Shown here piece after piece: positions 1-6,955 of a DNA stretch of 11,795 bases (positions within the stretch are counted from its first letter, which is position 1; each line of letters begins with the position of its first letter). Below the pieces are notes generated by a model, which searched no databases, was not told the origin of the DNA, and saw only the letters and a program-made list of their open reading frames with translations. The position numbers and the translations under genes were made by a program. Source of the stretch: a virus. Its lineage: Duplodnaviria; Heunggongvirae; Uroviricota; Caudoviricetes. The stretch is from the IMG/VR virus record IMGVR_UViG_2728369560_000006, positions 1 to 11,795 of that record, one strand, 5' to 3'.

Positions 1-2
1 TA

Positions 3-689
3 GTTACAAACACAGAACAATTAAAAGCATCTATAAATCATATTTATGGTTATAGCATTGACTCACAAAAATATCTTGACAAGTTTATAAAATATACCAT
101 CACGCTTCCAGATACATGTTTGATAAATGGTCACAACGTATGTAAAGCCTCTGTTATATATTGGGATTATCTTGTAGAAAAAACAAGGTTATTGAATAAA
201 ATCAATAGATTATCAGGTGACTTTATCCGTGATTTAATTCAACGAACCAACTTATCATTACGTGAAACACAAACATTTTCACGCAATCTTAACATTTTTC
301 AACTGTTAAACGACGATGAGAACAAAAGCAGTAATCCTTTAATAAATATGATCTTTGTCGTAGCTGCCTTCATACATTGCTTTGGTAACAAGGAAAAACT
401 AAAACAAGAAATTACCGCTGAATCTATATCTTATTTAGCAGACCTGCTTAACATAAAAGAAATACCTTATTCTTATGAGAGAAGATCGCAAATCCCTGAA
501 ATATCCATTGTATTCTTCGGAATAATTAAAGACAGTATTACTCTTAATGAGCGATTTGCCCCTAAAAGTGATGAAGAACTTAAAAAATTCACAAATGTTT
601 ATACTGATTATGAACACATAAATTTTTGGAGTACTACACCCAGAGAGTTATTGATAAAATATATTAATCAAATGTCATTCATCCAGTAA
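3..689 (+). CDS. hypothetical protein, 5'-truncated at window edge (AT-rich accessory gene, function unknown)
   Basis: The frame of listed ORF 120..689 stays open with no stop back to position 3, so the gene begins upstream of the window and 120 (TTG) is not the true start. Visibly AT-rich compared with the neighbouring phage genes. Stop TAA at 687-689 is followed directly by a hairpin. Convergent with Q. No family recognised by eye. Confidence 0.5.
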   Translation, partial: VTNTEQLKASINHIYGYSIDSQKYLDKFIKYTITLPDTCLINGHNVCKASVIYWDYLVEKTRLLNKINRLSGDFIRDLIQRTNLSLRETQTFSRNLNIFQLLNDDENKSSNPLINMIFVVAAFIHCFGNKEKLKQEITAESISYLADLLNIKEIPYSYERRSQIPEISIVFFGIIKDSITLNERFAPKSDEELKKFTNVYTDYEHINFWSTTPRELLIKYINQMSFIQ

Positions 690-690
690 A

Positions 691-717
691 TAATACGCCC
701 CATGCAGGGGCGTATTA
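691..717. terminator. bidirectional intrinsic terminator between convergent genes
   Basis: Perfect inverted repeat TAATACGCCCC / GGGGCGTATTA with a 5-nt loop (ATGCA), GC-rich core with A/T-rich flanks on both sides. Sits between the stop of the plus-strand gene (689) and the stop of minus-strand Q (718). Confidence 0.7.
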
Positions 718-1086
718 TTAAACGTCCAAATCTAATGTTAGATCTAGCATGGAAAGGCAGCCATCAATAAATCCTTCGGCTAGCTGTATTTCTATACGTA
801 TCAATTTCTCATCTTTTTTACGAGCCTTGGCGAGCTTTCTTTTAGAGATACCGTATAGGTAATGGGCAACAAGAAGCGAATGTTCGTCCGGCCTTTTTTG
901 CTTTAGACGAGCAAGACAACCTTCAATAATTAAGGCATCACTATCCGAACAAGCCAAGCGTTTCTTGCTTGTATAGGGAAGAAGTCCCTTAAACCCAGCG
1001 GCTATAGGTGAATAATCAACGCCTGAACTATCACTCGCCGCCCATGCCCCCCAACGCTCCAGAACCATCTGAATATCACGCATCAA
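718..1086 (-). CDS. late-gene antitermination protein Q (QuuD / phage 21-82 Q-like family)
   Basis: 122 aa. N-terminus MRDIQMVLERWGAWAA and overall size recall the short Q antiterminators of lambdoid prophages (family assignment from memory, not searched). It is the last gene of the minus-strand early operon, the canonical Q position. Confidence 0.7.
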   Translation of the reverse strand: MMRDIQMVLERWGAWAASDSSGVDYSPIAAGFKGLLPYTSKKRLACSDSDALIIEGCLARLKQKRPDEHSLLVAHYLYGISKRKLAKARKKDEKLIRIEIQLAEGFIDGCLSMLDLTLDLDV

Positions 1087-1100
1087 CTTTCTCCACCAAA

Positions 1101-2096
1101 TCAGGCTAGCACACCAATTGCCAACGCACGGTCGATAAAACGAAATATCAGCTCCAGCTGGGAGCCATACTTCTCTTCAAATGCCACGGTATCCGCATGC
1201 AGCTCGTCGTGATGCTTTCTGCACAAAGGCAACACAAAGAGGTCATGCGCTTTTGTACTCATTCCCCCCTGACCGTGGCCTATCAGGTGGTGGGGATCAT
1301 CAGCAGGCTTTCCACAACATGCACACGGCTGTGTCTTAACCCAGCGCGTGTACTTTTCATTAACCCAGCGGCGACGTTTGGGGCGTAACATAAAAGACTC
1401 CGGCGACTCCGGCTCCACTTTCAGCGCCAGCACCTTTTTCGCCTTATCCTGGATGATGCTGGTGGCAGGAACCGAAGGCACAAGGTCACTTTCCCGGGTA
1501 ACAGACGGCACAACAGGCTTCGGTAATCTCAGTGCCTTACGGGCTGCACTTTCCGGTAAGGCATCCGCCAGATCATTACGAATCAGCCACCAGCACAGTT
1601 CCGGCATTGTCACAACGTGACTGTCATCAAAACCGAGATCCCGACGCACAACAGACAACACCCAGCGGGCACAGTTATCCGTTGCCATTGATTCCAGCCG
1701 TTCCGTGAACTGATCGCGCAGCTGGTTATCGCAGTGCCAGCACAGACGGATTGCGCCCGGAGCGTGTCGCATTGTGGTCATGTTCTCGCTGTGCCAGTCG
1801 GAATGAGGCCACTGGCAGCCTTTTTCACGAAGTAACCAGCTTTCAAGACATTCCACGCCACCAGCACGACGGATCACTGCCTCATTGCGGAACACGGCCT
1901 GAACGGCAGGATCATCCGCCAGCGGTTGTGATGCCGCCGGAACGGCACCACTGGCGAAAGATGAATAACGTTCCGGCTCAGGCTCCAGCAGGACACGCCC
2001 CTGCATAAACAGGGGCATCAGCTCTGAACCTGGTCTGAACAATACGATCCCCATACGCGGGGCAATTTCAGGGGTCAGTAGTGCTCTCACGGTCAC
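1101..2096 (-). CDS. DUF968-family protein (YdfU-like) with C-terminal Cys/His-rich HNH-like motif
   Basis: 331 aa. C-terminal CACCGKPADDPHHLIGHG ... CRKHHDELH is a zinc-finger/HNH-like signature. Size and position (between RusA/KilA-N and Q) match DUF968 proteins of lambdoid prophages; family assignment from memory. Confidence 0.6.
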   Translation of the reverse strand: MTVRALLTPEIAPRMGIVLFRPGSELMPLFMQGRVLLEPEPERYSSFASGAVPAASQPLADDPAVQAVFRNEAVIRRAGGVECLESWLLREKGCQWPHSDWHSENMTTMRHAPGAIRLCWHCDNQLRDQFTERLESMATDNCARWVLSVVRRDLGFDDSHVVTMPELCWWLIRNDLADALPESAARKALRLPKPVVPSVTRESDLVPSVPATSIIQDKAKKVLALKVEPESPESFMLRPKRRRWVNEKYTRWVKTQPCACCGKPADDPHHLIGHGQGGMSTKAHDLFVLPLCRKHHDELHADTVAFEEKYGSQLELIFRFIDRALAIGVLA

Positions 2097-2097
2097 C

Positions 2098-2895
2098 TCA
2101 ATGAACGGTATCGAGCAGCTTTAACAGCTCAGGGAATCGGGATTCGAAGAAATGCGGCTGCGTCTCGCGCGGATTTGCAGGACTGGTGATGTTCTTGCCG
2201 AACATGCAGCCTTTCGCCGTCAGCGACCAGAATTTTTTGATGTTGTTAATCGCGGTACGGCTGTATCGTTCGCGTTGTTCAACGATCCCCAGCTTCGCCA
2301 TCTGGTGATATGCCTGATTAGCTGTCAGGCAGATACCATACTGCTTCAGCAGTGCACTCAGTGACAGCGTGGGGCGGCTTGAGCCATCAGGCGCGTCAGC
2401 AGGAGCATCAATGGCATAGCGCGGTGCCAGATTCGGTAAGCCAACAGCCTCCTGGAGTTTCTGACAGGCACCAAGCACTGAAGAGTTAGACAGGTTTAAC
2501 TCCCGGCGCATAAAGTCCAGCAGGATCACGCCAGCCTGCATCTTGTCAGCAGCCTGCCCGGATAATTTTTCCGGTGTGCTGGTTACCATATCGAAAGTAC
2601 GGATCACCTTCAGATGGAATGACGGGCTGATCCACATTGCATAGGCATACACCAGTTCTTTGCAGACATACGTCCCTTGGTTATTTCCGCCACGAATAAC
2701 GTTAACTGGCGCTATATTGACCGAGTTGCAAATCTGCAACTCGCTTATTAAACGTTCGGTTTGCTCATTGCGGAGCCAGAATGCAGGCTTATGTTTATCC
2801 AGAGAACCGGCAGCCCTGTGCAGATCGTTCAGGCTGTAACGCCCATAAGCATCACGACGAACTTCAATACCATCAATAACCATCAGATTATTCAT
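2098..2895 (-). CDS. KilA-N domain-containing protein
   Basis: 265 aa. N-terminal region (MVIDGIEVRRDAYGRYSLNDLHRAAG ... KPAFWLRNEQTERLISEL) resembles the KilA-N/APSES-type DNA-binding domain common in prophage nin regions. Tightly packed with neighbours (2 nt from DUF968 start). Confidence 0.6.
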   Translation of the reverse strand: MNNLMVIDGIEVRRDAYGRYSLNDLHRAAGSLDKHKPAFWLRNEQTERLISELQICNSVNIAPVNVIRGGNNQGTYVCKELVYAYAMWISPSFHLKVIRTFDMVTSTPEKLSGQAADKMQAGVILLDFMRRELNLSNSSVLGACQKLQEAVGLPNLAPRYAIDAPADAPDGSSRPTLSLSALLKQYGICLTANQAYHQMAKLGIVEQRERYSRTAINNIKKFWSLTAKGCMFGKNITSPANPRETQPHFFESRFPELLKLLDTVH

Positions 2896-2914
2896 ACTTC
2901 GTTTCTCCTCTTAA

Positions 2915-3304
2915 TCAGGCGGCTGCACCCGCCGGTTTCTCGTACTTACTGATAGTGATCTCGACCTTCCCTTCCGGGATAACCGGTCCCCACTCCACCA
3001 GCATTCTTTTCACCTGACTGTCGTCTTCCCACACACCCGCGTGGGTCAGGGCGTCAAACAGCGCCTTGTTATAGTTGTCCAGATCGCGGATCCGGTTATC
3101 CGGAGGAAACAACACGATCTCCACTGAAGCAGGTGCCGACGTTGGTTTTGGCAGACGACGTAACTGCTCAACTATTGCTGCACACGCCGCGCTCTGGAAT
3201 TTGCGCCCCGCCGCGCTTATCAGGCTCTTACCAGCAAACGCCCCTTTGTTGGGGTGTCGCCAGTACGTGTTCACGCTGGGCGGAAAAGGCAGGATCAGCT
3301 TCAT
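2915..3304 (-). CDS. rusA: crossover junction endodeoxyribonuclease RusA (Holliday junction resolvase)
   Basis: 129 aa. Motifs LPFPPSVNTYWRH, RDLDNYNKALFDALT and GVWEDDSQV match the RusA family, including the catalytic Asp cluster. Start overlaps the stop of the upstream gene (3301-3304). Confidence 0.85.
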   Translation of the reverse strand: MKLILPFPPSVNTYWRHPNKGAFAGKSLISAAGRKFQSAACAAIVEQLRRLPKPTSAPASVEIVLFPPDNRIRDLDNYNKALFDALTHAGVWEDDSQVKRMLVEWGPVIPEGKVEITISKYEKPAGAAA

Positions 3305-3627
3305 ACTTTCAGGCCCCTCTCATGTAACCAGTGGGCTGCACGCAGCCTGGCGTTTTCCTCACCGGCAAGCAGTGAGCGGATAATCCCGACCGCCTCGCTG
3401 TCGTCGTCCTTCACCGCGGTATGAAGCGTTATCCCCCGTGCCACGCCACGCTTTATCGTGATGACGCCTTTTTTCTCCAGTGCGCGAAGATGCTCCACCG
3501 CTGCATTCACTGAACGGTATCCCAGCATGGTAGCCACCTCCTGATTGGTTGGCGGGAAGCCACGTTCTTTCTGATAAGAAATCAGCATATCCAGCACCTG
3601 CTGCTGGCATTGAGTTAATGTCGTCAT
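3301..3627 (-). CDS. LexA N-terminal DNA-binding-domain protein (winged-helix only; no S24 peptidase domain)
   Basis: 108 aa. LTQCQQQVLDMLISYQKERGFPPTNQEVATMLGYRSVNAAVEHLRALEKKGVITIKRGVARGITL aligns closely by eye with the E. coli LexA N-terminal domain (LTARQQEVFDLI...[36 protein letters not shown]...SRGIRL). The protein ends about 40 aa later with no Ala-Gly/Ser/Lys peptidase region. Confidence 0.7.
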   Translation of the reverse strand: MTTLTQCQQQVLDMLISYQKERGFPPTNQEVATMLGYRSVNAAVEHLRALEKKGVITIKRGVARGITLHTAVKDDDSEAVGIIRSLLAGEENARLRAAHWLHERGLKV

Positions 3628-4310
3628 GCCGCCATCTCCCTGACCAGTTTTTCCGCCTGCTGGCGAACCTGCGCCAGAAACGCCTCACCACATGTCTCAA
3701 GTTCATCGCGCCCGATGTAGCTGATTGCCGGTCCCTTCCAGGTCTTATCGAAAACAGCAATAGCACCAGCGAAGAACGCTCCTGTCGGCACCTGCTTCTC
3801 GTCTTTCGGGATAAACCAGACAGGCAGTTCAAAACCAATACGCCCGCGAATAAAAGCAATATGGTCTGCATCTTCCGGCCACCACACTTCGCTGGTGGCA
3901 GCTTTGATCAGGAAAACATAGCGCCCGCCTTTATCACGCATGGCACTGGCATGCTTCATGATGTAACGCATGCCGGTGATGTATTGCCCCTCATGCTGAC
4001 TGGCGCGGCTGTATGGGGGATTACCAAAGGCAGCACCTTTAAGCTCCGCAAGACGTTCTGACCAGTCATGCGCCAGCGCGTTGTCTTCCGCCGTGTAATA
4101 CGCGGCACATTTGGCGTTATCACCGTCAGTGAACAGATCCAGAACAAACGGACCAAACAGGGTGTTAATTCCCCAGAAAATGTTATCCGGCGTGCGCCAC
4201 TGATCTCCCACTTCCTTCAGTTCATGGGCTGGTTTATTCCGCAGTTCCACCAGCGCCTGGCAATATTTATTACTCATTAAGCCCCCACGTAATTCCCTGA
4301 CAGATACCAC
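3624..4310 (-). CDS. phage DNA N6-adenine methyltransferase (Dam family, orphan)
   Basis: Contains the (D/N)PPY motif IV (FGNPPYS) typical of N6-adenine/N4-cytosine methyltransferases, with no adjacent restriction gene. Start is uncertain: the ORF track gives 4310, but an internal ATG at about 4277 (MSNKYCQ...) forms a TAATG overlap with the upstream gene's stop and may be the true start. Confidence 0.7.
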   Translation of the reverse strand: MVSVRELRGGLMSNKYCQALVELRNKPAHELKEVGDQWRTPDNIFWGINTLFGPFVLDLFTDGDNAKCAAYYTAEDNALAHDWSERLAELKGAAFGNPPYSRASQHEGQYITGMRYIMKHASAMRDKGGRYVFLIKAATSEVWWPEDADHIAFIRGRIGFELPVWFIPKDEKQVPTGAFFAGAIAVFDKTWKGPAISYIGRDELETCGEAFLAQVRQQAEKLVREMAA

Positions 4311-4771
4311 TCTTCACCCGATGCAGCGCGCTTGCTGCTTTTCCGTAAGCACCGCTCACGACGCGCCAGAAAATTGTTTCGTTCTGGCTGGGAGTGGCTT
4401 TCACGGAATGCCGCCATCCACACGGTTGCAGCACGACGGTATAAGCCCCTTGACTCCAGTTCTTCCGCCTGGCGGGTCAGGCACAAAATCACCCGGGGAT
4501 CGTTAGTGCCGACATAGAAATTGCGCGCAGGTCTGGTTTCACGAACTGGTTGTGGTTCCGGCTCCTGCGCTCTCTCAGTCAGGCGCGGGAAATGTCTGCG
4601 TGTATCCCCTTCATAACGGTGAGCCACACGCCCACTCTGACGTAACTTGCTTGCTGACTGCAGAACGCGCTGCCGTGAGTAACCAGCAAAAGCATCCGCA
4701 ATGTCTCCGGAAGTACACCCCGGATGGGCTTCAATGAATTTCTGAACGTCATTTAACAGACTCATGATCAC
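4277..4771 (-). CDS. PerC-family-like putative transcriptional regulator
   Basis: 164 aa. C-terminal region carries GLYRRAATVWMAAF ... ARRERCLRK, resembling the GLWRRAA..W hallmark of PerC/Pch regulators (from memory). Start overlaps the O-like gene stop (4768-4771). Confidence 0.45.
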   Translation of the reverse strand: MIMSLLNDVQKFIEAHPGCTSGDIADAFAGYSRQRVLQSASKLRQSGRVAHRYEGDTRRHFPRLTERAQEPEPQPVRETRPARNFYVGTNDPRVILCLTRQAEELESRGLYRRAATVWMAAFRESHSQPERNNFLARRERCLRKSSKRAASGEEWYLSGNYVGA

Positions 4772-5709
4772 CCCCTGAATCCTGCCGGGATCTGGCTGTA
4801 GTCCACGTTGTCGTAACTGGATTTGAAGTACGGGTCTTCGCGTTTTTCGGTGTACGTGCTTACGGACGGCGATAAGCGCAGGGAAAGCTCATCCCATTTT
4901 TCCCGCAGCTTCGACGGGCTGAGCACGTTACGGCACCAGAACGGATCGCGGCTGACGCGGCTGTACATCTCGCAGATTTGTTTGTGAGTACGACCATCCT
5001 GCACACACATCAGGCGAATTTCGTTTGCCCAGGCTGTCCAGTTCGGTTCTTTGGGACGAACCACCTCGCCGTCACATTCGGCGGCCTGCTCGTACAGGGC
5101 GATGATTTTTTTCCAGAGCCACTGTGCGCAGGTCAAATCATCCTGCGTTCCCCACTGGCGCTTTTTAGGGCTGAATACAACCGCATCAGGATGGCGAGTT
5201 AAAAAATCCTGTTCATCCGTCTGCGTGTCCGGTTGCGAAGCGTCCGGACGAGAAGTTTTTTTATCTGACGGATCATGTTTTGATTTTACTGACGGATCCC
5301 CGCCAGATTCTGACGGGTGAAAACCCGCTTTTTTGCCAGATTTCGACGCATCAAATTTTGACGGGTCAGATTTTGATGCGTCAGATTTTGACGGGTCAGA
5401 ATCTGACAGTTGAGAAAATGCCGCTGCCTGAAGCTTCGCAACGTTAAGCTGATAAACATTCGACGCATTGCGGTTACCCTGGCGACGCGCCTTACGCGTT
5501 AACCAGCCTTCTGCTTCCAGCCGTGCGATAGCCGTTCTGACGGTACTCATCCCCGCGCCAATCTGGCGGGCAATGGTTTCAATTGATGGCCAGCACACAC
5601 CTTCGTCATTACTGAAATCAGCCAGGCGGGCCATAATTGCCACGCTGGATAATTTCATGCCTGATGCAGCGCAACTATCCCATACATAGCCGGTTAATTT
5701 AGTGCTCAT
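4768..5709 (-). CDS. phage replication initiation protein (O-like: N-terminal wHTH domain, repeat-encoded linker, C-terminal domain)
   Basis: 313 aa. N-terminal HTH region (SIETIARQIGAGMSTVRTAIARLEAEGWL), low-complexity linker SDSDPSKSDASKSDPSKFDASKSG encoded by tandem 15-bp DNA repeats (lambda O-like architecture with ori inside the gene), and a C-terminal domain. SD GAGG about 6 nt upstream of the ATG. Confidence 0.7.
   Translation of the reverse strand: MSTKLTGYVWDSCAASGMKLSSVAIMARLADFSNDEGVCWPSIETIARQIGAGMSTVRTAIARLEAEGWLTRKARRQGNRNASNVYQLNVAKLQAAAFSQLSDSDPSKSDASKSDPSKFDASKSGKKAGFHPSESGGDPSVKSKHDPSDKKTSRPDASQPDTQTDEQDFLTRHPDAVVFSPKKRQWGTQDDLTCAQWLWKKIIALYEQAAECDGEVVRPKEPNWTAWANEIRLMCVQDGRTHKQICEMYSRVSRDPFWCRNVLSPSKLREKWDELSLRLSPSVSTYTEKREDPYFKSSYDNVDYSQIPAGFRG
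5281..5410. repeat. iteron array (candidate phage origin of replication inside the initiator gene)
   Basis: About 7 copies of a 15-bp unit (plus-strand consensus TCAGATTTTGACGGG). Copies at about 5336-5410 are in perfect 15-bp phase (CCAGATTTCGACGCA, TCAAATTTTGACGGG, TCAGATTTTGATGCG, TCAGATTTTGACGGG, TCAGAATCTGACAGT), with further copies at about 5282-5318. A/T-rich patches lie immediately to the left. Confidence 0.65.
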
Positions 5710-5718
5710 GACCGACCT

Positions 5719-6057
5719 CTATTTCCCTGAATTTACGACGAAACTGTTCGAGCGGGCTGAAGCACTCATGCTCATAGCCTTCGCGGAGGTAGATAACCCG
5801 TTGTGTTTCCGGCTCCCAACGAATGACTCTGACGGGCACTCCGTAGTGATCTTTGAACCAGCGGTTAACTTGTCGCAAAGGACTGTCTCCTTCTGCCGGT
5901 TGAAATCACCCACAGCCCACTCTGCAAAGCTGTGGGTTACAATTTCCCTGTCACCTGGTACATTTACTGCATAGCAATACTCCACCTTCGCTTTTCCACC
6001 CGGTACAGGAAGCGCAATCAGTTGCGAGCGACGGTAGTGTGTTGTTAAACTGTTCAT
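5719..6057 (-). CDS. hypothetical protein (small ORF between CII-like and O-like genes)
   Basis: 112 aa. Same strand as the operon, start overlaps the CII-like stop (6054-6057), SD-like GGAG upstream. Against: low-complexity C-terminus, no recognisable family, and a strong 9-bp hairpin (about 5908-5937) inside the ORF. Confidence 0.35.
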
Positions 6058-6605
6058 GCGTTAGTTTCTCCACAGTCACGACACGCCACGGCGCCCGGAG
6101 CTGCACACTCGCGGGCGTCATTACTTTCTGAAATGCAAAAAATTTTGTAGACCAGTGCTGCATGCTCCTGCAGCTTCGAAATTGAGAGGTACAGCTCGTC
6201 GTTAATTGCTGTCTTCTCATGCGGTTCCACTACACCGTCTTCAATTGCTGAACGAATCTGTTTTGAATAACTGCCGATCTGTTCAATGACTTCCAGCAGG
6301 CGCTGGTTAATATCGGCGTTGTCCACATCCTCGACGTCAGGAAGAGACACAAAGACGCCATTTGCAGACTGCGCCACAGCGTCAGCAATGAAGTGAGTTC
6401 CACCAGCACGTTGCAAAATCATTGCCCATCCCAGCGGGAAAATCTGATCGCCATCGGCACGAAGGCGGTTAAATAATGCGTTCTCTGTTACATCCAGCCA
6501 GTCAGCAGCTTCAGCGTACCCCCCCGGCAACGCTGCGATAGTTTTTCTGACAGCTTTCACGTACCACTCAGGCTGTTTTTCTACTTTCCAGTGATGCTTA
6601 CCCAC
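6054..6605 (-). CDS. CII-like / YdaT-family phage regulatory protein
   Basis: 183 aa, directly downstream of the cro-like gene with overlapping start/stop, the canonical cII position. Size and position fit the roughly 180-aa CII(CP76)/YdaT-type proteins of enterobacterial prophages; family call is positional plus weak memory. Confidence 0.5.
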
Positions 6606-6858
6606 GGTTCACCTCCTGTTCCTGTGGTTTAAACCCATTCTGGTTTTGGCTAGATTGAAAACGTGCCGGATAAAGAATCTGCATTTCGCTGACTTCACCC
6701 TTAAAAAAATTGGCTAAACGTTCTGCAAGCTCGATAGATGGAATCTGCTCCAGCCTCTCAATACGACTCAACGTCGCTGGATTGACTTGAACACCCGCAG
6801 CAACATGCTGCAAAGTGAAACCATGCGCCTTACGCACATTTCGTAATGGTGATTGCAT
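6598..6858 (-). CDS. cro: Cro-like HTH (XRE family) transcriptional regulator
   Basis: 86 aa with a clear HTH (FTLQHVAAGVQVNPATLSRIERLE). Divergent from the CI-type repressor gene across a 97-bp operator region. Strong SD (GGAGGTC) upstream of the ATG. Confidence 0.8.
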   Translation of the reverse strand: MQSPLRNVRKAHGFTLQHVAAGVQVNPATLSRIERLEQIPSIELAERLANFFKGEVSEMQILYPARFQSSQNQNGFKPQEQEVNRG

Positions 6859-6955
6859 ATGACCTCCAAATATTGCGCGTTATGCATGTTATTTCACGCA
6901 ATTATTTTGCGCAAGTTGATTTGCTTATCACGCAATAAAGAAATGTAATAAACGC
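6859..6955. promoter_or_regulatory. immunity region OR: divergent pR/pRM promoters with repeated TTGC-N7-GCAA operator sites
   Basis: Repeated half-sites TTGCG/CGCAA: TTGCGCGTTATGCAT (about 6873-6887), ACGCAATTATTTTGCGCAA (about 6895-6915), TTGCTTATCACGCAA (about 6921-6935). Candidate pRM -35 TTGCTT / -10 TGTAAT ending about 7 nt before the cI ATG (leaderless-type cI mRNA, as in lambda). Candidate pR on the minus strand within the same interval. Confidence 0.55.

Follow-up and report, generated by a model that had tools for sequence, protein, structure and literature searches.

A KAP-Family NTPase Gene Convergent with the Antiterminator Gene Q as Candidate Single-Gene Anti-Phage Cargo of Lambdoid Prophages

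Introduction

KAP NTPases are named after Kidins220/ARMS and PifA (PMC13001434). The founding member PifA, which is encoded on the F plasmid and excludes T7, is devoid of transmembrane helices; when it aborts an infection by T7, the membrane is depolarised and nucleotides leak out (see the summary in PMC13001434). More recently, a KAP NTPase from Enterococcus, EF_KAP, which carries an uncharacterised C-terminal region, was found to protect against phage in a Walker B-dependent and apparently non-abortive manner, and three other KAP proteins with different tails were also protective (PMC12632615, a 2025 preprint published in 2026 as PMC13552941). Strong protection is likewise conferred by Reve, a single-gene ATPase/KAP system found in P4 satellite hotspots (PMC13586616, 2026), while Tmn is a member of the separate YobI family (PMC13001434).

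The DNA considered here is a window of 11,795 nucleotides, i.e., the whole stretch analysed (positions 1 to 11,795 of the IMG/VR virus record IMGVR_UViG_2728369560_000006), and it is the early region of a lambdoid prophage. Its left end holds the 3′ half of a KAP-family gene, which had originally been predicted from the letters alone to be an AT-rich accessory gene, possibly anti-phage or virulence cargo, without any family being recognised. The novelty of the feature is low because the family is already catalogued and the type of location is already known, and in this respect it is fairly ordinary. With it, the cargo known from lambdoid prophages of E. coli and Salmonella grows by another likely single-gene defence, and a site where such cargo is cleanly exchanged is documented.

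Reading Frame and Full-Length Gene

The frame on the plus strand of the window is open from position 3 to a TAA stop codon at 687–689, as predicted, and comprises 228 sense codons plus the stop. The predicted length of 229 or more residues was correct in describing the C-terminal part of a larger protein but counted the stop codon as a residue. The upstream sequence was recovered from E. coli XH990, which is 100% identical to window positions 1–1100 and in which the KAP gene extends 645 bases farther upstream, in agreement with the prediction that the start lies outside the window. The full-length product of XH990 has 443 aa (WP_063118234.1, annotated as 'KAP family NTPase'), and the window therefore carries residues 216–443, so that positions 3–689 represent codons 216–443 and the stop codon of a 443-aa KAP-family P-loop NTPase gene.

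Seven complete E. coli genomes contain loci with 100% identity to window positions 1–1100, and among the matches listed, at least 80% of this segment is covered in 50 complete E. coli genomes. The features annotated in the listed matches are always 'KAP family NTPase' and 'antiterminator Q family protein', and the KAP gene is an intact CDS in every E. coli match listed. The strong AT-richness noted in the original prediction is evident from a G+C content of 0.29–0.32 over window positions 1–750 compared to 0.45–0.59 over 750–2100; the in-window frame has approximately 31% G+C, and the full KAP gene has 32.7% compared to 52.2% for Q and the DUF968 gene together.

Family Assignment and Comparison with Known Systems

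The in-window fragment matches the Pfam family KAP_NTPase (PF07693) with an E value of 1.3e-17 (64.4 bits, cutoff of 20 bits), and its residues 1–102 align to profile positions 189–292 of 293, i.e., to the tail of the domain only. This end of the KAP NTPase domain occupies window positions 3–308 on the plus strand and includes the family-invariant residues Q221, H228, Y230, and G231, the YLDKF motif, and the LSLRE motif with R302 and R309. For the full-length protein, residues 15–317 align to profile positions 1–292 of 293 (E 7e-71, 239.2 bits). The Walker A motif (GAWGTGKT, residues 39–46) and the Walker B motif (IIIDELDRC, residues 182–190) of the full-length copy are both encoded in the 645-base 5′ part upstream of the window. 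The remaining Pfam matches of the protein are weaker AAA/P-loop-type families; the profile search suggested at the outset has thus recovered a P-loop NTPase, and no lysis or structural protein family of the late operon and no IS or transposase family, either of which would have spoken against accessory cargo, was matched. The gene product is a soluble KAP-family P-loop NTPase, and its identity is secure.

Among the defence models of PADLOC, the best match is the candidate family PDC-S20 (model PDLC04956), which is found with an E value of 1.7e-61 for the window fragment and of 2.1e-177 for the full-length protein, residues 3–442 of which align to profile positions 4–449 of 450. The gene stands alone, without a conserved partner; apart from Q and DUF968 or cI and int, the neighbours vary between the contexts examined. 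The KAP protein belongs to PDC-S20 itself, with no structural difference, and PDC-S20 is a computational candidate: in the literature searched, the term was absent and no experiment on the family was found. For the full-length protein, PifA comes next among the PADLOC models (E 2.8e-18, confined to the NTPase domain), followed by QatA (E 1e-11).

The protein shares with PifA a similar KAP core, the lack of transmembrane helices, and carriage as a single gene on a mobile element. The similarity, however, covers residues 7–252, which align only to positions 13–255 of the 720-position PifA model, and the 190-residue helical tail of the protein is unrelated to PifA. It is only for PifA that triggers (T7 gp1.2 and gp10) and a membrane-leakage phenotype are known. 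A PifA-type exclusion protein was rejected as an identification since there is no homology over the C-terminal ~470 residues. EF_KAP and the three metagenomic KAP proteins (Enterococcus faecalis) as well as Reve can be likened to the protein by their published descriptions; they combine a KAP P-loop domain with a C-terminal region that has no known domain, and they lie on mobile elements, as does the KAP gene here. EF_KAP differs in having two N-terminal transmembrane helices and a 322-aa tail, whereas the present protein lacks transmembrane helices and its tail comprises about 125–190 aa.

More remote systems of the same broad group could also be compared. The best solved-structure match to the AF2 model of the protein is RdrA, a ring-forming AAA+/STAND-like ATPase (Foldseek E 1e-5, TM 0.38–0.45), and Cdc6/ORC is matched as well. 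RdrA, in contrast, has about 800–850 aa, works with the deaminase RdrB, and is only 10–14% identical to the KAP protein; RADAR was rejected because the resemblance is at fold level only, no PDB sequence matches, and no deaminase gene is nearby. QatA and Tmn are P-loop NTPases of the same broad group, and the QatA models match the Walker B region. QatABCD was rejected on an NCBIfam QatA score of 34.2 bits against a cutoff of 600 and on the neighbouring genes, which are Q and a holin gene, with no QatBCD. As for Tmn, no Tmn model is among the PADLOC matches, and the KAP protein lacks the transmembrane insert.

No transmembrane helix was predicted in the full-length protein, in which the highest 19-residue Kyte-Doolittle mean is 1.53, and no signal peptide was found; a search for strongly amphipathic segments gave no clear one. 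The lack of transmembrane helices is not disqualifying for the KAP family because PifA also has none. Residues 112–154, between Walker A and Walker B, are conserved in sequence and are modelled with a pLDDT below 50. They are encoded upstream of the window (about 11691–11819 of the XH990 locus, L001) and occupy the place of the transmembrane helices in other KAP NTPases, with too little hydrophobicity to span a membrane.

Conserved Core and Variable C-Terminal Region

A database search with the protein gave 2130 homologues at E ≤ 1e-5, the best 120 of which are nearly all 440–447 aa long and come from Enterobacterales. In an alignment of 105 of these best 120, the residues G39 and W41-G-T-G-K45 of Walker A and D185-E-L-D-R-C190 of Walker B are invariant, as are an N-terminal RDE motif, R302, and R309; in the YLDKF motif (residues 239–243), Y239, L240, K242, and F243 are invariant and D241 is nearly so. 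The mean pairwise identity falls from 60% for residues 1–252 to 27% for residues 253–443. The latter form an all-alpha C-terminal region (window positions 114–686, plus strand), which evolves fast and is proposed to be a specificity or sensor module. A similar contrast is obtained with the E. coli and Salmonella copies, for which dN/dS is 0.15 overall, 0.08 in the N-terminal half, and 0.26 in the C-terminal half, indicating purifying selection on the KAP gene with a faster-evolving tail.

When the C-terminal 191 residues were used in a HMMER scan of 1.84 billion representatives, only nine clusters were obtained at E ≤ 1e-3, and the identified clusters among them (P0031 and P0062) are members of the same KAP family. 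The tail therefore appears, as far as these searches indicate, to be a family-private and rapidly diverging module. In the AF2 model, the part encoded by window positions 3–308 consists of helices and a small beta hairpin. Structure comparison found no enzyme fold in the C-terminal half, and no recognisable effector domain was found in the protein. A PDB sequence search with a profile of the 105 homologues matched no solved structure, and a search of viral structures in BFVD gave only generic AAA+/clamp-loader matches and one giant-virus KAP protein. The pattern of a conserved core and a hypervariable tail typifies proteins that contend with a variable target.

Convergent Q Gene and Spacer Hairpin

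The neighbour of the KAP gene, at window positions 718–1086 on the minus strand, encodes a 122-aa late antiterminator Q of the PF06530 type (Phage_antitermQ, E 1.8e-52), which is weakly similar to the solved Q21 structures (E 0.005). Upstream of Q lies a DUF968/HNH-like early gene (1101–2096, minus strand; Pfam DUF968, E 3.3e-80). Since the KAP frame is on the plus strand and the adjacent Q is on the minus strand, the two genes converge, as had been predicted.

Between them, a perfect 13-bp hairpin with a 5-nt loop (positions 689–719) takes up the entire 28-nt spacer and overlaps both stop codons. It folds with −20.8 kcal/mol on the plus strand (z = −6.5) and with −21.5 kcal/mol on the minus strand (z = −4.8), and no shuffled sequence folds as stably. 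A scan for consensus terminators did not call this hairpin, in which the U-tracts are imperfect; it is a putative bidirectional terminator or insulator. The claim that only a shared bidirectional terminator separates the KAP gene from Q stands in so far as the hairpin fills the spacer, and its action as a bidirectional terminator is a reasonable reading of its structure.

The hairpin is kept at the KAP–Q spacer in Salmonella, Citrobacter, Cronobacter, and Enterobacter loci. The E. coli hairpin (window positions 689–719) and the Salmonella hairpin (positions 7332–7362 of locus L009) have identical stems, and their 5-nt loops are reverse complements of one another (ATGCA and TGCAT, respectively), as expected if the loop of the palindrome had been flipped. 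In Citrobacter, Cronobacter, and Enterobacter, the hairpin is at the same place with unrelated stem sequences.

The Q-to-Holin Slot and Its Cargo

In XH990, the order is Q, the KAP gene, a lambda-family holin gene, and then the endolysin, spanin, and terminase genes. A comparison of the Q-to-holin interval across E. coli genomes showed variable contents between conserved flanks, which bears out the prediction that the interval between Q and the lysis genes is an insertion point for morons. The slot of a prophage with similar Q and holin holds a gene for an SDH/ClpP-like serine protease, that of another prophage holds a gene for a TIR protein (PADLOC TIR-TM, E 1.7e-57), and that of another holds a two-gene cassette for an NA37 nucleoid-associated protein and a hypothetical protein. 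In DLP12 of K-12, the porin gene nmpC lies between quuD and the conserved block upstream of essD, so that the nmpC precedent cited in the original prediction occupies literally the same slot, and in the same orientation. A stx-phage-like prophage has no cargo in the slot, and there the conserved block follows immediately on the stop codon of Q. Altogether, the interval from the Q stop codon to a block of ~95 bp has at least five alternative fillings and also occurs empty, and many prophages that share the same Q and holin lack the KAP gene. Every cargo runs in the direction opposite to Q and the late genes, including the KAP gene, whose orientation against the late operon had been predicted, and all cargo is AT-rich (32–44% G+C).

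Deviant G+C content, an orientation of its own, a 3′ hairpin, and polymorphism by presence/absence and by replacement are the features of a moron in a hotspot, and all of them were found. The KAP gene is a swappable single-gene prophage cargo in a Q-to-holin recombinational hotspot, and the strong hairpin would insulate it from Q.

In an alignment of seven Q-to-holin intervals, conservation resumes at the ~95-bp block (...GTCCGCAAAAA...TGTTAAGAGTGGTTACTTCGCCACACAGCTTAAACCCGCCGTCGAGCGGGTTTTGTCG...), which has a terminator-like late-strand hairpin at its end and is followed by the leader to the holin gene. The block lies at 11212–11304 of the XH990 locus (L001), ~1.4 kb upstream of window position 1 and outside the window, and at 2001–2076 and 2501–2591 of two other loci (L007 and L006, respectively). 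It is the only DNA conserved from Q to holin across cargo types, is found upstream of unrelated holins, and touches Q where there is no cargo; therefore, it is probably the module of the late promoter, qut, and tR′. By hand inspection, a −10-like hexamer (TAATCT/TATGCT/CAGTAT) with a poor −35 was noted as a candidate pR′. A promoter scanner that demands A at position 2 and 9 of 12 matches did not report this candidate, and an Rfam search of the Q-to-holin interval gave no match.

The cargo would then probably lie between Q and the late-leader/terminator block, outside the late transcript. The stx gene sits inside the late transcript and is co-oriented with it. The KAP gene, unlike this precedent from the original prediction, is opposed to the late transcript and appears to be upstream of the late leader. 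Both nmpC/lc porin genes and stx are morons at the same location as the KAP gene with unrelated products.

Carriage in Other Genera and Elements

In Salmonella, Citrobacter, Enterobacter, and Cronobacter, homologues with 42–92% identity likewise lie next to Q and converge with it. The Salmonella Typhimurium copy (92% identity) stands for a cluster with 2139 member sequences; it is part of a phage remnant, and the gene order there is holin–KAP–Q–DUF968. The Citrobacter (66%), Enterobacter (46%), and Cronobacter (42%) copies are 27–32 nt from a PF06530 Q gene; in these loci, the holin families differ, and Q is 74–82% identical compared to only 23–47% for the KAP tail. The DUF968 gene travels with Q and KAP in all five genera (the same order in L009, L013, L016, and L020). 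In one Citrobacter prophage with a Q-adjacent KAP gene (L015), ORFs of the early region contain colicin and GIY-YIG domains (10240–11466 and 12175–12948, respectively).

Members with 41–44% identity are found between cI and int of P2/186-like prophages of E. coli and Serratia, where they are co-oriented with cI and int (6001–7332 in L010–L012 and 6001–7341 in L018–L019). For a Vibrio phage related to P2, a position of this type has been described as a hotspot of defence genes (PMC9122126). No sequenced phage of the GenBank collection was found to have a close copy of the KAP gene, and plasmids carry only distant KAP proteins and one copy with 49% identity.

Proposed Function and Alternatives

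Taken together, these data make it fairly probable that the KAP gene encodes a lysogen-expressed, single-gene, anti-phage NTP-dependent sensor-switch with the variable helical domain as the sensor. The gene would be transcribed from its own promoter in the lysogen; a promoter scan gave a consensus match against the start codon, but the 8 sites found compared to 7.0 expected are at chance level. The variable C-terminal domain would recognise a component of a superinfecting phage, whereupon nucleotide binding or hydrolysis by the AAA+/Cdc6/RdrA-like core would drive oligomerisation or remodelling and block the infection. The outcome could be exclusion or abortive infection, in the manner of PifA and the validated single-gene KAP defences. 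Because no separate catalytic effector domain is present, the output would have to be the NTPase itself, which would consume nucleotides or remodel proteins, or else a partner from the host or the phage that acts in trans. This output step is the weakest part of the model, again because there is no effector domain, and the lack of both this domain and transmembrane helices speaks against the model at the killing or blocking step.

Five circumstantial lines point to the defence role: the protein belongs to a defence-candidate family; its core is akin to those of PifA and QatA; a conserved engine is combined with a variable tail; the same slot holds defence-like alternatives; and carriage recurs at lysogeny-associated accessory positions in two unrelated groups of temperate phages. 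It also weighs against this role that slot cargo is not always defensive, nmpC being a porin gene, that the similarity to PifA ends at the NTPase domain, and that the tight linkage to Q over a long divergence could reflect a phage-internal role. Three alternatives, namely conversion cargo without a defence function, a phage-internal role tied to Q, and a functionless passenger, are all less likely than the anti-phage switch.

The first alternative is lysogenic-conversion cargo without a defence function, in which the NTPase would alter host physiology, the envelope, or virulence. It has precedents in and near the slot, such as nmpC of DLP12 in the same slot and orientation, other nmpC/lc porin genes, bor/iss, which in related prophages are located just past the lysis genes, and the neighbouring sspH2 of Salmonella, where the 92% identical Typhimurium copy is beside a NEL/LRR effector gene and an OafA-like acyltransferase gene. 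However, the nearest characterised relatives of the NTPase core are the defence proteins PifA and QatA, the pattern of a conserved core and a hypervariable tail is atypical of housekeeping or envelope functions, and the protein has neither a signal peptide nor a membrane segment, all of which make such a conversion role unlikely.

A role in the prophage's own cycle, for example in Q-dependent late transcription, lysis timing, or induction, would explain why the KAP gene stays beside Q, and the convergent Q–hairpin–KAP arrangement is retained in five genera, with KAP identities that range from 92% to 42%, while the families of the holins on the other side change. On the other hand, prophages with 80–90% identical Q proteins carry unrelated cargo or none, so that the KAP gene is dispensable for the Q/late module. 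Moreover, other members of the family reside in P2/186-like prophages without any Q gene, no close copy is in the GenBank phage collection, and the gene runs counter to the late operon. A role of this kind is unlikely, slightly more so than conversion cargo.

A decaying or functionless passenger, i.e., horizontally acquired AT-rich DNA silenced in the host, would agree with 33% G+C inside a 52% G+C phage context and with the degraded prophage remnants that hold the Salmonella and Cronobacter copies, but it is very improbable in view of the low dN/dS (0.15, and 0.08 in the NTPase half), the invariant catalytic motifs in the 105 homologues, the uniform length of about 440–447 aa across genera among the best 120 of 2130 homologues, and the 2139-member cluster together with the intact CDS in every E. 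coli match listed.

Of most interest is whether the convergent geometry of Q, hairpin, and cargo, conserved as it is, has a regulatory role of its own. There is a slim chance that the Q–hairpin–KAP arrangement is a regulatory module that provides self-immunity by transcriptional collision. The KAP NTPase would be made in the lysogen, which it would protect from superinfection. Upon induction, early transcripts subject to antitermination would extend through Q and the hairpin, and this read-through, antisense across the KAP gene, would shut KAP off, so that the prophage would escape its own defence. If true, such a collision would also explain the shared orientation of every cargo in the slot. 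In practical terms, this small soluble KAP NTPase, which has natural variants with 92%, 66%, and 42% identity and sharply differing tails, offers a convenient system for addressing phage sensing and output by KAP NTPases, questions that are open even for PifA.

Prophage Context

The early rightward genes of the window are all on the minus strand. Besides the genes for DUF968/HNH and Q, the window contains genes for an integrase (10514–11698, plus strand), a cI-like S24 repressor (6956–7648, plus strand), a CII/CP76 regulator, a replication-initiator-like HTH protein, a PerC-like protein, RusA, and KilA-N, as well as a cro-like gene (6598–6858, minus strand). Compared to the XH990 prophage, window positions 1–6633 match at 99.5% and 7833–10304 at 97.8%, whereas blastn gave no match for 6634–7832, the immunity region with cI and cro, or for 10305–11795, the integrase end, indicating modular exchange on both sides of the shared early region.

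Two further genes could bear on restriction evasion or nucleotide pools: one for an apparently orphan Dam-type N6-adenine methyltransferase (3624–4310, minus strand; PADLOC MTase_II, E 1e-157) and one for a YfbR-like 5′-deoxynucleotidase (9118–9681, plus strand), the latter a weak match with 24.3 bits against a Pfam cutoff of 25.9. An AT-rich ORF of 144 aa near the repressor gene (8166–8600, minus strand; 36–39% G+C) had no Pfam or PADLOC match; its annotation in a related genome is 'ECs1072 family phage-associated protein', and the prophage may thus have a second accessory gene here. Pairs of AAA ATPase and RloB genes are linked to phage defence, and in XH990, genes of the AAA family ATPase and RloB families lie directly beyond the prophage integrase gene (L001 23721–25100, outside the window).
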